Virus record (IMG/VR): IMGVR_UViG_3300020371_000006
Direction: 5' to 3' (one strand)
Origin: an uncultured virus (IMG/VR IMGVR_UViG_3300020371_000006)
Taxonomy: Duplodnaviria; Heunggongvirae; Uroviricota; Caudoviricetes; Kyanoviridae
Length of the DNA stretch: 20,000 bases
Of the stretch, positions 12,465 through 18,490 are shown in pieces. The stretch's first letter is position 1; each line of letters opens with the position of its first letter. The notes under the pieces were generated by a model. That model saw nothing but the letters and a program-made list of their open reading frames with translations. It was not told the DNA's origin and did not search any database. Position numbers and translations under genes: made by a program.

Positions 12465-13064
12465 ATGATTATTGGTAATGTGCCCGAGTCGGTTTCCGAA
12501 CCGATTAGGGCAACTCTTTTGAATAGTTCCTACTTCCCTTGGTATATGATTACCGAGACAACTAGGTACGATCCCACATACAATGACAGCATACCTGATG
12601 AATTGTCTGGAGAAGACCCACAGTTTCAGCACACTGTCTTGAATAATAAAGGTGAGGTTACTTCACAGAGCAGTTACGACTTGGTGGTCGAACCTTTGTG
12701 GAGATATATAGTTACAAATTATGATAATGAGTTGGGTAGTTTTGAAAACTTCCGAAGGATCAAGATCAATCTCTTGACTAAGAAGGAGTCAAAACATATG
12801 TACCACACACCTCACGTGGACTATGATTACCCTCACAAAACTCTTCTATACTATGTGAATGATTCTGATGGACCAACCTATTTCTTTAACGAGAAGTATG
12901 ATGGCACTCGGAAGAAACTGACGATCAAGGAAAAGGTGGAACCCAGACAAGGTAGATTTATTATCTTCGACGGACATCGTTTCCACGCCAGTAGTAACCC
13001 CCAGTATCACGACTATAGATGCGTAGTGAACTTCAACTACATCTCAAATTTCTCAAGCAGTTAA
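12465..13064 (+). CDS. 2OG-Fe(II) oxygenase
   Basis: HVD (HxD) motif, LYYVNDSDGPT, FHASSNP, RCVVNFN. Confidence 0.85.
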   Translation: MIIGNVPESVSEPIRATLLNSSYFPWYMITETTRYDPTYNDSIPDELSGEDPQFQHTVLNNKGEVTSQSSYDLVVEPLWRYIVTNYDNELGSFENFRRIKINLLTKKESKHMYHTPHVDYDYPHKTLLYYVNDSDGPTYFFNEKYDGTRKKLTIKEKVEPRQGRFIIFDGHRFHASSNPQYHDYRCVVNFNYISNFSSS

Positions 13065-13156
13065 AGCGTGAGTTAAAGAGGGATAATGGAGAGCGTTATC
13101 GTTACAAACCGAAACAATCTTCTAAGAAAAAAGGTTCGCGCAAGCACAAAAAGTAG
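13019..13156 (+). CDS. Small basic hypothetical protein (45 aa)
   Basis: Manual translation MRSELQLHLKFLKQLKRELKRDNGERYRYKPKQSSKKKGSRKHKK; fills the gap before the late promoter; not in the ORF track. Confidence 0.45.
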   Translation: MRSELQLHLKFLKQLKRELKRDNGERYRYKPKQSSKKKGSRKHKK

Positions 13157-13175
13157 CGTTTGATACTAAAGGTTG

Positions 13176-13182
13176 CTAAATA
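13176..13182 (+). promoter_or_regulatory. T4-like late promoter (variant) for the riboswitch island
   Basis: CTAAATA, followed by hairpin GTGAAGATG-TTAT-CATTTTCAC (13186-13207). Confidence 0.6.
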
Positions 13183-13208
13183 GAAGTGAAGATGTTATCA
13201 TTTTCACA

Positions 13209-13441
13209 CGTTCATCTTATGTTAGCACTCCTGCTCGCATTGAACCTCGCTCACCACAATGACGGGTCACCCTATGGATGGCATATGTCTTGTGAGAGAT
13301 TCCTCCAACGTCGTGTGGAGATCCAGATGGATAGCAACTTAGACCAACGGTCAAAGTGGAATCTAATTGGATACCTCAAGTCGAAGGTGGAAGGTGAATG
13401 TGATGGGACGTTTACATAGGACGCAAGTAAGTCGCGGAACG
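13209..13441 (+). ncRNA. Glutamine riboswitch-like aptamer 1 (glnA/Downstream-peptide type core) with ORF-containing P2 loop
   Basis: P1 CGTTC(13209-13)/GAACG(13437-41); P2 TCTTATGT(13215-22)/ACATAGGA(13414-21); junction CGCAAGTAAGTCGCG. Confidence 0.75.
13219..13419 (+). CDS. Small protein encoded within P2 of aptamer 1 (66 aa)
   Basis: MLALLLALNLAHHNDGSPYGWHMSCERF...VEGECDGTFT; ATG in the 5' arm and TAG in the 3' arm of P2. Confidence 0.65.
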   Translation: MLALLLALNLAHHNDGSPYGWHMSCERFLQRRVEIQMDSNLDQRSKWNLIGYLKSKVEGECDGTFT

Positions 13442-13444
13442 GAG

Positions 13445-13633
13445 CGTTCATCCCAATGGTTGAATTTTTACTCTATGCAAATATGATGTGTTCTGATGCT
13501 GATGCATTGTTGCTCAGGATCGAAAAGAACAAATCAGAGATGCCCCCAGCAATCGTGCTGGAGTTAGTGGAGACCGTAAAGGAATCTGTACCAGAGTGCC
13601 ACCACTATTGGGACGCAAACGACTAAAGGAACG
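13445..13633 (+). ncRNA. Glutamine riboswitch-like aptamer 2 with ORF-containing P2 loop
   Basis: P1 CGTTC(13445-49)/GAACG(13629-33); 10-bp P2 TCCCAATGGT(13451-60)/ACTATTGGGA(13604-13); junction CGCAAACGACTAAAG. Confidence 0.75.
13456..13626 (+). CDS. Small protein encoded within aptamer 2 (56 aa)
   Basis: Manual translation MVEFLLYANMMCSDADALLLRIEKNKSEMPPAIVLELVETVKESVPECHHYWDAND; GGAG at 13441-44 is a possible RBS. Confidence 0.65.
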   Translation: MVEFLLYANMMCSDADALLLRIEKNKSEMPPAIVLELVETVKESVPECHHYWDAND

Positions 13634-13667
13634 GGCCTAAAAATCCAACTACTTTAGGAGTAATTCA

Positions 13668-13835
13668 ATGAACACACTTACACTGATCAAGAAGCAGATC
13701 CAAAAGCAGTCTGCACTGCACGATGCACAGATCTCTCACACTGCATATCGTGGTGTTGAGTACAACGTGAACTGTGCTGAACATAATGACGTTCACGGTA
13801 CCTTCTGCTACAGAGGGCACGTATATCAGAAGTGA
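13668..13835 (+). CDS. DUF4278-like YRG-motif peptide (55 aa)
   Basis: AGGAG RBS 13656-60; MNTLTLIKKQIQKQSALHDAQISHTAYRGVEYNVNCAEHNDVHGTFCYRGHVYQK has two YRGxxY motifs. Confidence 0.8.
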   Translation: MNTLTLIKKQIQKQSALHDAQISHTAYRGVEYNVNCAEHNDVHGTFCYRGHVYQK

Positions 13836-13839
13836 GGCA

Positions 13840-14010
13840 ATGAGAGAAAATTATCAGTATCATTACGATGATATGGATAAAGATTCTCGACCTCCTTCTT
13901 GCTATCAACTAACTTACCGTGGTGTTAATTACTGGTCCTGCTATCGAATCCATTTGAAGGACTATTTTGAGCAGTTGCTCACGGTAGAACCTCAATACAA
14001 TCGGAAATAA
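13840..14010 (+). CDS. Second YRG-motif (DUF4278-like) peptide (56 aa)
   Basis: GAGG RBS 13834-37; MRENYQ...CYQLTYRGVNYWSC...; ATG 13840 is preferred over the track start. Confidence 0.7.
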   Translation: MRENYQYHYDDMDKDSRPPSCYQLTYRGVNYWSCYRIHLKDYFEQLLTVEPQYNRK

Positions 14011-14033
14011 AGCACCCACACGGGTGCTTTTTT
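14009..14033 (+). terminator. Rho-independent terminator
   Basis: AAAGCACCC-ACAC-GGGTGCTTT followed by further Ts. Confidence 0.85.
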
Positions 14034-14035
14034 CT

Positions 14036-14052
14036 TGCTATAATACTAAATA
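14036..14052 (+). promoter_or_regulatory. Adjacent extended -10 and late-type promoter for talC
   Basis: TGCTATAAT (14036-44) followed by CTAAATA (14046-52). Confidence 0.6.
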
Positions 14053-14076
14053 GCAGTGCAACAACAGGAGGTCCAA

Positions 14077-14745
14077 ATGAAAATCTTTTTAGATTGCTCT
14101 GACCCAGATTTGATTGCGTATGCTGTTGAGACAGGTCTTGTGGATGGTGTAACAACCAACCCGAGTCTAATGCGTAAAGCTGGACAAAATCCGCGAGACG
14201 TGATAGAAAGGATCTGTGATTTATTTCCTTGGGACGCCTCTATCTCAGCAGAGGTAGTGGGCGATACTGCCGAGGAGATGTTGGAAATGGCAACTGACTA
14301 CTACCAGATTGCTCCCAACATTACAATTAAATTACCCTGCAACAGAGAAGGACTCATTGCTTGTGGTGATCTCAGCGGCGACGGGATTCCAACCAATGTC
14401 ACACTAATCTTCTCTGCCGCCCAGGCGATTCTCGCCGCCAAAGCAGGCGCTACTTACGTGTCACCATTCGTTGGTCGTGTCTACGATCAATACTGGGATG
14501 GTATGGATTTAATTAAACAAATTGATGAAATCTATGACAAACACGAAGTTGAAACAGAAATCCTTGCAGCTAGCATTAGGAATCCAATCGAAGTACCGAA
14601 TGCATTCCGAATGGGCGCTGATGTGGTTACTATGCCGATAGACATCTTTAGTAAACTGTACGATCACGTTCTAACAAAACAGGGATTGGACAAGTTTAAT
14701 GAAGACTGGTCACAACTGATGATGGAGATTCATTCGGATGAGTAG
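14077..14745 (+). CDS. talC: Transaldolase (TalC/FSA family), auxiliary metabolic gene
   Basis: MKIFLD, GVTTNPSL, ITIKLP (Schiff-base Lys), NVTLIFS, YVSPFVGR, ILAASIR; AGGAGG RBS. Confidence 0.95.
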   Translation: MKIFLDCSDPDLIAYAVETGLVDGVTTNPSLMRKAGQNPRDVIERICDLFPWDASISAEVVGDTAEEMLEMATDYYQIAPNITIKLPCNREGLIACGDLSGDGIPTNVTLIFSAAQAILAAKAGATYVSPFVGRVYDQYWDGMDLIKQIDEIYDKHEVETEILAASIRNPIEVPNAFRMGADVVTMPIDIFSKLYDHVLTKQGLDKFNEDWSQLMMEIHSDE

Positions 14746-15702: not shown

Positions 15703-15776
15703 GGGCTAGTAGCTCAGTGGAATAGAGCAACTGCCTTCTAAGCAGTCGGTCGTAGGTTCGAGTCCTACCTAGCTCG
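15703..15776 (+). tRNA. tRNA-Arg (anticodon UCU)
   Basis: Acceptor GGGCTAG/CTAGCTC, D arm GCTC/GAGC, anticodon arm ACTGC-CTTCTAA-GCAGT, T arm GTAGG-TTCGAGT-CCTAC; CCA not encoded. Confidence 0.95.
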
Positions 15777-18333: not shown

Positions 18334-18370
18334 AGTTGACGGGTTACAAATCTTAAACCTTTGTCACACT

Positions 18371-18446
18371 TGACGCCTTACCGAGACTAAACAGCGTCAT
18401 TAAATAACAGTCTCTCATACCTGCACTGGAGGGTGGTGCAGGAATA
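18371..18446 (+). ncRNA. PhotoRC-II-like structured 5' leader of psbA
   Basis: Pseudoknot TGACGC/GCGTCA (18371-76/18394-99) with GAGACT/AGTCTC (18383-88/18409-14), then hairpin CCTGCACTG-GAGGG-TGGTGCAGG (18420-42). Confidence 0.75.
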
Positions 18447-18490
18447 TTTTAATACGTCACATCCCTAGTGACCTTACTTACCCTTTTTCA

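Follow-up and report, generated by a model that had tools for sequence, protein, structure and literature searches.

A predicted strand-swapped pair of glutamine aptamers with open reading frames in its loops in a T4-like cyanophage

In the nitrogen control of cyanobacteria, glutamine riboswitches are, to our knowledge, the only sensors of an amino acid described so far. As far as the accessible part of the structural report on glutamine-II goes (PMC6698751), a CGUUC strand pairs with GAACG in both glutamine-I (glnA RNA), where the resulting helix is P1, and glutamine-II (Downstream-peptide), where the equivalent helix is PK (pseudoknot); a "long-range" pair, here referred to as the linchpin, connects the base following CG with the base following GGAACG; a loop E turn is present, and P3 projects to one side; glutamine-II crystallized as a domain-swapped dimer, and glutamine is bound by an RNA in two pieces. 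Tandem arrangements were surveyed by Sherlock et al. (2022; PMC9481103), who, in the accessible part of their report, list 157 doublets and 4 triplets and class them as pseudo-cooperative independent riboswitches with several expression platforms, while the Stockholm file of Weinberg 2010 (supplement 5, the portion in parts 127-129) aligns the units singly and leaves the P3 region unpaired. Glutamine riboswitches turn on DUF4278/IF17 genes, for which the available text of Klahn et al. (2018; PMC6212724) proposes release of a helix that blocks the ribosome-binding site. Here we analyze a stretch of 20,000 nucleotides (the window) from the uncultured virus IMGVR_UViG_3300020371_000006 (Kyanoviridae), in which two glutamine-aptamer-like units are found between positions 13,209 and 13,634. 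The window is part of a T4-like cyanophage and lies inside a 31-kb IMG/VR record. Our in silico analysis makes it probable that this locus is one transcription unit (about 13208-14040) carrying a strand-swapped pair of glutamine aptamers. All parts of this locus (13173..14040) lie on the plus strand, and (1) and (2) mark the motif copies of the first and the second unit.

A helix shared by two aptamer-like units

Directly after its AAGUA motif, the first unit carries the pentamer AGUCG (S1, 13430..13434), and the second unit carries the exact reverse complement CGACU (S2, 13620..13624), so that all five pairs of the form present in the window are Watson-Crick. This match had been pointed out in an earlier reading made from the letters of the window alone (the sequence-only reading), together with the claim that a separate P3 hairpin does not fit into either unit; both observations hold, since only 6 nucleotides separate AAGTA from GGAACGG(1) and only 6 separate CGCAA from AAAGGAACGG(2). 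Taken alone, the 5-bp match in the window is only suggestive. A Watson-Crick run of at least five pairs occurs between two random 11-mers of the window with P = 0.043, between mononucleotide shuffles of both junction strands with P = 0.008, and in a fixed register with P = 0.001. The weight must therefore come from homologues.

Homologous loci were collected with two motif scans of IMG/VR, which yielded samples of together at least about 240 loci, and with three scans for junction patterns, which returned at least 118, 120, and 116 loci, mostly chance hits. Before counting, we removed exact duplicates and 28 rows of junction hits in which CGNAAGTA was missing upstream or xAAGNAACGN was missing downstream. 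Many of the loci are doublets; a compact kind has a short second hairpin, and in the long kind 150-200 nucleotides separate CGUUCA(2) from the second GGACGC. We aligned 29 distinct compact doublets with MAFFT (alignment A1), and 20 of the first 120 loci were scored with the Rfam glnA model. A 751-nucleotide query around the locus matches 418 phage records, nearly all of them from Synechococcus or Prochlorococcus myoviruses. A junction-pattern scan of genome contigs was swamped by chance matches in unrelated bacteria and contained no cyanobacterial locus among the 80 listed; it has no bearing on whether host genomes carry the swapped doublet.

Across 133 distinct doublets, all five of the first five pairs of the shared helix can form in 66, four in 63, three in 3, and two in a single locus (L747), which is a genuine side-by-side tandem. 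Pair 1 is A-U in 120 doublets and G-C in 9, the latter being double changes, and pair 5 is G-C in 117, A-U in 5, U-A in 1, and C-G in 1. The covariation of the two pentamers across phage loci, which the sequence-only reading had proposed as a check, is thus present as compensatory changes at pairs 1 and 5, and its proposal that the partner unit supplies the helix is retained. Individual variants include AGUCU/AGACU (L800) and AGUCA/UGACU (L112). At the level of haplotypes, a mean of 4.05 pairs is formed, compared to 3.55 (standard deviation 0.10) with shuffled partners, and none of 2000 shuffles reaches the observed value. A tally of the strands following AAGUA and preceding [G/A]AAGG in 215 junction hits (duplicates included) gave the matched types AGUCGC/ACGACU (72 hits), AGCCGACUC/AAGCCGACU (41), AGCCGACAC/AUGCCGACU (11), AGCCGACGC/ACGCCGACU (5), GGACGGC/ACCGCCC (5), and GGACGACGC/ACGCCGCCC (4), with AGUCAC/AUGACU and others among the remainder. 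Within the 29 sequences of A1, columns 37-100 are AU in 20, GC in 6, GU in 2, and another combination in 1, columns 38-99 are GC in all 29, columns 41-97 are CG in 28, and columns 42-96 are GC in 25, AU in 1, GU in 1, and another combination in 2; columns 45-92, which correspond to pair 8 of a longer form of the helix, comprise three Watson-Crick types (GC in 6, UA in 5, AU in 4). The structure as a whole is paired in 94.3% of the cells of A1, compared to 84.3% after shuffling (reached in 0 of 500 shuffles) and 32-53% with slid partners. These comparative data argue that the 5-bp helix AGUCG:CGACU is real and conserved with compensatory changes.

In the 8-bp form of the helix (e.g., L041, L066, and L075), both strands are identical, AGCCGACU being present in both units, and the duplex is therefore quasi-palindromic with two symmetric C.A mismatches (A1 columns 40-98 and 43-95). 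A third lineage, GGACGACG/CGCCGCCC, has A.C at the same two columns. These symmetric mismatches could be protonated wobbles or a deliberate weakening of the helix.

Most doublets possess the same letters in both units, and pairing in cis (within a unit) cannot be distinguished from pairing in trans (between units) in them; loci in which the two units differ decide. About 28 such informative loci (two of them counted in two scans) fit the trans wiring only, and no locus without P3 fits cis pairing only among the loci listed. The largest group comprises 16 of 119 distinct doublets, which combine CGG(1), GGAACGG(1)-CGUUCA(2), CGC(2), and GGAACGC(2), so that both linchpins pair only in trans. Two further doublets of the 119 (L039 and L089) contain CGUUCA(1), GCAACGG(1)-CGUUGA(2), and GGAACGG(2), and in these both P1/PK helices form only in trans. 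The matched junction GCAACGG-CGUUGA was found with riboswitch context at 10 loci, of which at least two are the same contigs as L039 and L089, compared to 0 and 0 for the two mismatched junctions among the loci listed. L242 and L341 pair an outer CGUUUA(1)/GAAACGG(2) (CGUUU:AAACG) around an inner GCAACGG(1)-CGUUGA(2) (GCAACG:CGUUG). A scan for GGAACGC at the junction gave riboswitch context in 5 among the 120 loci listed; L741 and L800 with CGC(1), GGAACGC(1), CGG(2), and GGAACGG(2) allow trans pairing only, and L721 and L825 are uninformative in this respect. When the trans structure was scored on A1, both linchpins paired in 29 of 29 sequences, the outer one being C:G in 23 and G:C in 6. The cis (side-by-side) structure was scored on A1 as well and was rejected, as each linchpin is left unpaired in 6 of 29. 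RNAalifold, with no structure supplied, recovered the outer helix (columns 3-7:105-109), the inner helix (48-52:58-62), and both hairpins. Apart from the two linchpins, all pairs of the fold are nested. This pattern indicates that CGUUCA(1) and CGC(1) pair with GGAACGG(2), and that GGAACGG(1) pairs with CGUUCA(2) and CGC(2). The locus L747 was found to be a classical side-by-side glutamine tandem with its own P3 hairpin in each unit; both architectures hence exist in viral contigs.

The outer core predicted from this wiring is a three-way junction of the glnA type (glutamine-I), composed of CGUUCA(1), hairpin 1, CGC(1)-AAGUA, P3, and AAAGGAACGG(2). Its 5' strand, CGUUCA(1) (13209..13214), which is supported by the trans pairing in L242 and L341 and by RNAalifold, lies about 210 nucleotides further upstream, and the 5-bp P1 helix CGUUC:GAACG that closes the junction is present (13209-13 with 13629-33). 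CGC(1) and AAGUA (13422..13429), the latter being the 5' side of the loop E motif, are indicated by the sequence and by linchpin covariation in the 16 mixed loci; the loop E 3' strand, the outer P1/PK strand G13629-G13633, and the linchpin base G13634, which pairs with C13424, are all contained in AAAGGAACGG(2) (13625..13634). The candidate loop E has AGUA at 13426-29 and, on the opposite strand, AAA (13625-27), where most loci have GAA; 33 of 119 distinct doublets carry the A variant, always together with a U in the partner of the anti-Shine-Dalgarno strand described below. In this arrangement AGUCG:CGACU takes the place of the glnA-type P3 of the outer core, and the "loop" of P3 would hold an inner core made of GGAACGG(1), a 2-nucleotide linker, CGUUCA(2), hairpin 2, and CGC(2)-AAA. 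This inner core appears to repeat the aptamer in an order that is circularly permuted at the P3 loop, with its ends joined by a linker of 2-5 nucleotides in the homologues. GGAACGG(1) (13436..13442) is supported as a strand of the inner P1/PK helix by the GCAACGG-CGUUGA loci, by L741 and L800, and by RNAalifold, and CGUUCA(2) (13445..13450) as the 5' strand of this helix by sequence, junction covariation, and RNAalifold; the inner helix is formed by G13437-G13441 with CGUUC at 13445-13449. The inner linchpin, G13442:C13616, uses CGC(2), which lies with the hairpin strand AUUGGGA and the AAA motif at 13607..13619 and is assigned from the sequence and the homologues.

A single 5-bp helix would thus be shared, with a core at each of its ends, and each core would take strands from both units. 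When a duplex takes the place of a P3 hairpin, S1 has its 3' end on the far side of the helix; GGAACGG(1) would consequently meet CGC(2)-AAA there, while at the near end CGC(1)-AAGUA would meet GAAGGAACGG(2). The Rfam glnA model aligned compact doublets as such a hybrid, namely CGUUCA and the hairpin of unit 1, GGACGCAAGUA, P3, and GAAGGAACGG of unit 2, with AGU and ACU separated by 38-41 nucleotides as P3; scores amounted to 43.6 bits for L030 and L040 and to 38.4 bits for L078, all above the gathering threshold of 35 bits. This alignment was the first sign that the helix is the P3 of glnA and that the units are nested rather than placed side by side. The interlocked two-unit arrangement of the sequence-only reading stands with respect to the partner-supplied helix; what does not stand is the picture of two self-contained aptamers docking on each other, because swapped linchpin and P1/PK pairing builds both cores from both units.

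Embedded open reading frames, candidate expression platform, and gene setting

Both hairpin loops of the window house an open reading frame (ORF). Hairpin helix 1 consists of 8 contiguous pairs (13215-22 with 13414-21) and closes over ORF1 (13219..13419), which encodes 66 amino acids with two Cys residues and a hydrophobic N-terminus; the 5' strand UCUUAUGU (13215..13222) contains the AUG of ORF1 (13219-21), and the 3' strand ACAUAGGA (13414..13421) contains its stop codon UAG (13417-19). ORF1 belongs to phrog_6471 (E 1e-37) and has no Pfam match. All 28 distinct loci whose loop 1 is long have an intact reading frame, and in these the stop codon is placed either in the 3' strand of the hairpin or is the UAA of AAGUAA. 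Hairpin helix 2 comprises 7 pairs (13451-57 with 13607-13), and its 5' strand UCCCAAU (13451..13457), paired in the minimum free energy fold, overlaps the AUG (13456-58) of ORF2 (13456..13626), which encodes 56 amino acids with two Cys residues, belongs to phrog_504 (E 1.5e-21), and likewise lacks a Pfam match. Both long-range hairpin helices covary in the homologues; the versions UCUUAUG/CAUAAGA, UCCAAU/AUUGGA, UCCUAU/AUAGGA, and UCCGA/UCGGA occur, and helix 2 is also found as UCCCAUGG/CCAUGGGA, UCCUUA/UAAGGA, and UCCU/AGGA.

ORF2 is intact in 76 of 80 distinct long doublets (the exceptions being L008, L065, L101, and L221), with its AUG 3-10 nucleotides after CGUUNA(2). All 80 translations contain exactly two Cys residues and have a hydrophobic N-terminus; two-Cys members with a hydrophobic N-terminus are found in both embedded families, phrog_504 and phrog_6471. 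The stop codon of ORF2 (TAA, 13624-26) overlaps the shared helix, as the sequence-only reading had stated: its T is the last base of CGACT, and the first base of U[G/A]A is likewise the last base of S2 in 76 of the 80 ORF-bearing loci. The hairpin 3' strand, CGC(2), AAA, and S2 supply the last codons of ORF2 (W D A N D stop), and the conserved C-terminus D-A-[N/K/H]-x-D-stop can be understood as the predicted aptamer core GAC GCA AAC GAC UAA read as codons. A GGAG resembling a Shine-Dalgarno sequence (13441..13444), formed by the end of GGAACGG(1) and the linker AG, is located 11 nucleotides before the AUG of ORF2. Linkers that begin with AG, and so convert ..ACGG to GGAG 10-11 nucleotides ahead of this AUG, occur in 47 of the 89 doublets with ORF2 and in 0 of the 44 compact doublets.

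The minimum free energy fold also contains a helix between CUAAAG (13623-28) and CUUUAG (13652-57), which we consider the candidate expression platform (13623..13660). CUUUAG overlaps the Shine-Dalgarno sequence AGGAG (13656-60) of ORF3, and this anti-Shine-Dalgarno helix and the shared helix both use C13623 and U13624. A helix of the type CU[G/A]AAG:CUU[C/U]AG with at least 6 of 7 pairs is present in 93 of 115 units; its variable pair is A-U in 36, G.U in 33, G-C in 24, and A.C in 0 of the 93, and the partner strand ends 8-10 nucleotides before the next ATG in 89 of the 93, overlapping AGGAG. Two full sets of core motifs thus precede ORF3 together with a single anti-Shine-Dalgarno platform, and the start signals of ORF2 lie between the units. 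ORF3 (55 amino acids; 13668..13835) resembles DUF4278 and IF17 at a sub-threshold level (PF14105, 22.5 bits, E 1.5e-4, cut-off 25.3), belongs to phrog_545 (E 1.6e-33), and is the predicted gene under riboswitch control. The following ORF4 (56 amino acids; 13840..14010) has a faint likeness to DUF4278 (15.7 bits, E 0.019). In L836 (Syn9; 826-868), L017, L026, L046, and L080, an additional hairpin, GGAAACGGAUCC...GAGAAGGUUAAU, follows GGAACGG(2) and precedes the Shine-Dalgarno sequence; it is missing from the window. The platform found here fits the proposed release of a helix that blocks the ribosome-binding site.

A promoter-like site (TTGCTA-17 nucleotides-TATCAT; 13173..13201), identified by consensus match only, ends 7 nucleotides before CGUUCA(1) and would set the RNA's 5' end at about 13208; two such matches were found, compared to 2.5 expected in shuffles. 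Several relatives (e.g., L030, L087, L091, and L093) and L836 (at 393-398) have TATAAT a few bases before CGTTCA(1), so that the transcript probably begins at the first base of the aptamer; the counterpart of this box in the window is TATCAT (13196-13201). A terminator-like hairpin followed by a T run (14009..14040; consensus match only), located 3' of ORF4, is the likely end of the transcription unit. Contigs from RNA libraries of 4 runs are identical or nearly identical to 13557-13634, 13609-13663, and 13815-13991, a weak hint of expression, as transcript ends and levels are not visible in contigs and DNA carry-over is possible. RNA-library contigs (runs X16 and X17) also join 13453/13454 to 13610/13611 via 4-10 other letters. 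Splicing was rejected as the source of these joints, which stem from relatives with a short hairpin in place of ORF2, and the contigs show that the compact form occurs in the sea together with the form that bears the ORF.

Syn9, a model phage available in culture, shares the layout of the window: loop 1 holds gp196, loop 2 holds gp197, and gp198 follows downstream, which makes experiments feasible. In S-IOM18 and Syn9, the same cluster is situated between nrdB and talC. The upstream flank of the window contains a weak 2OG-Fe(II) oxygenase-like ORF (12465-13064; 22.1 bits, below the cut-off), and the downstream flank a transaldolase gene (14056-14745; 192.9 bits). An Rfam scan detected a PhotoRC-II RNA (18364-18455; 59.4 bits) and a tRNA is present at 15703-15776 (69.6 bits), both of which fit a cyanomyovirus.

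Alternative explanations and a possible toggle

Several observations weigh against a two-site, strand-swapped arrangement. The loop E strands are missing from the inner core, where AAA and a single C replace AAGUA and GAA, and the P1/PK helix of this core is closed by only 3 nucleotides, one of which is needed for the linchpin; glutamine binding by the inner core is uncertain for these reasons. RNAalifold, run on the alignment with no given structure, did not predict the shared helix, and C.A or A.C prevails at positions 3 and 6 of the 8-bp form (19/29 and 11/15 in A1). Pairing in cis is Watson-Crick compatible as well in most loci, and a cis fold may form transiently during transcription. The loci were gathered by motif patterns, so that part of their invariance arises by construction; counts are only roughly comparable across scans, and related phages are not independent. 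No glutamine family was detected in the window at the gathering score, and none over 13000-14000 at E<=10; RF01739 (threshold 35 bits) had no match in the whole 31-kb record, and RF01704 (threshold 33 bits) had none in 13000-14000, its best hit in the record being a 6.3-bit fragment elsewhere. We attribute these misses to the loop inserts of about 190 and about 150 nucleotides, and hence do not read them as absence.

The weakness of the inner core gives room to an explanation in which only the outer glnA-type aptamer binds glutamine, and the inner elements are a non-sensing, structured insert in the loop of P3 that might stabilize P3 or just accommodate ORF2. The complete match of the outer hybrid to the Rfam glnA consensus speaks for this view, as do the missing loop E strands and the very short closing loop of the inner core; however, the inner P1/PK helix and linchpin keep their pairing through double changes (the 10 GCAACGG-CGUUGA loci, L741, and L800), and the ligand-contacting positions are conserved in the compact doublets, where CGC(2), hairpin 2, and the C preceding GGAACGG(1) are retained in 29 of 29. 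Such conservation is hard to explain for a mere spacer, and we regard this alternative as unlikely. One may also ask whether the helix and the hairpins mainly serve the translation of the embedded ORFs, glutamine sensing being secondary or absent in the ORF-bearing form; they would then couple termination on ORF2 to initiation on ORF3 or mask the start codons of ORF1 and ORF2. The position of the ORF2 stop codon on the last helix pair and inside the anti-Shine-Dalgarno strand in 76 of 80 loci would suit this role, as would the location of both AUGs in hairpin 5' strands and the restriction of GGAG to loci with ORF2. Yet the same helix with the same covariation is present in 44 compact doublets without ORF2 and is thus independent of the reading frame, and all motifs of the ligand core are intact in the ORF-bearing loci, which leaves a primarily translational function improbable in our judgment. 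That the two units are independent side-by-side aptamers, as in the published tandem models, and complementary only by chance is very improbable: a 5-bp match between two 11-nucleotide strands arises by chance in 0.8 to 4% of cases, the accessible part of the Weinberg 2010 alignment lists the units singly and without P3, and a true side-by-side tandem exists (L747), but the approximately 28 informative loci break cis and keep trans pairing, the opposite occurs in none of the loci listed, and the shared helix covaries.

If the strand-swapped fold binds glutamine, binding would lock the P1/PK helices and the linchpin pairs along with loop E and the shared helix. The locked fold would withdraw the CU of CGACU and the following AAAG from the anti-Shine-Dalgarno helix, and the freed Shine-Dalgarno sequence would turn on the DUF4278 (IF17-like) gene that follows, in line with what has been published on single glutamine riboswitches. 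Since both cores need the shared helix, occupation of one site should favor the other and give a steeper response. Folding would also hide the GGAG and AUG of ORF2, and ribosomes translating ORF2 would have to unfold both cores. We tentatively suggest, as a possibility that goes beyond the structural data, that the doublet acts as one strand-swapped sensor of two glutamines and toggles the operon, exerting opposite control on two sets of genes and taking translation as a second input. At high glutamine, the folded RNA would mask the GGAG and AUG of the embedded two-Cys peptide genes and open the Shine-Dalgarno sequence of the IF17-like genes; at low glutamine, the peptides would be translated, and ribosomes passing through ORF2 would wipe out both binding cores, since the final five sense codons of ORF2 and its stop codon are at the same time the aptamer core. 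The C-terminus ...W-D-A-N-D-stop of ORF2, doubling as a predicted ligand-binding core, represents a rare and testable overlap of constraints on RNA and protein. If the tandems are strand-swapped two-site sensors, searches with covariance models would miss many members, since whole genes can lie within the aptamer loops.

Comparison with known glutamine riboswitches and other two-site RNAs

Full-text literature searches, whose coverage did not include Ames & Breaker 2011, returned no description of the swapped wiring or of ORFs inside the aptamer, so that an earlier description may exist. The joined junction strings were not matched in the Weinberg 2010 Stockholm files, whose rows are broken by gap characters. 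With glutamine-I (glnA RNA, RF01739), the outer core of the window shares CGUUCA, hairpin, CGN, AAGUA, P3, [G/A]AAGGAACGN, and linchpin in the same order. It differs from this class in that P3 is a duplex with the second unit, the "loop" of P3 is the second core, and both hairpin loops accommodate ORFs and span about 150-200 nucleotides. Glutamine-II (Downstream-peptide, RF01704; 6QN3) is resembled in the C:G polarity of the linchpin, in the combination of CGC with GGAACGG, and in the position of the element before small ORFs and DUF4278 genes; as in the described portion of the glutamine-II crystal structure, one nucleotide separates the helix end from GGAACGG in the inner core. The P2 of glutamine-II, in which a linker and a 3' tail enclose GGAACGG, has no counterpart, as no such complement flanks either GGAACGG of the window; instead, the strand before each GGAACGG is predicted to pair with the other unit.

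The tandem glycine riboswitch has two sites for one amino acid, one expression platform, and contacts between its aptamers. Its domains are complete and dock through tertiary contacts, whereas strands of the secondary structure would be exchanged here. In guanidine-II, as mentioned in the accessible part of PMC6698751, ligand sites arise from the association of two similar units; this association is a loop-loop kissing of two hairpins, in contrast to the shared helix with a junction core at each end that we predict. Compared with the tandems of Sherlock et al., as far as the available part of that report describes them, the units of the present doublets are separated by only 2-5 nucleotides, their strands are swapped, and the compact doublets have a single expression platform. 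If tandems of this kind are strand-swapped two-site sensors, their dose-response behavior needs to be re-examined, as true cooperativity differs from "pseudo-cooperativity". A parallel is the domain-swapped dimer in the glutamine-II crystal, from which, on the described portion of that structure, the present RNA differs in that the swap is intramolecular and naturally conserved. The doublet resembles such a swap with its partners covalently linked, and the crystal dimer would, if this reading is true, gain a natural counterpart.

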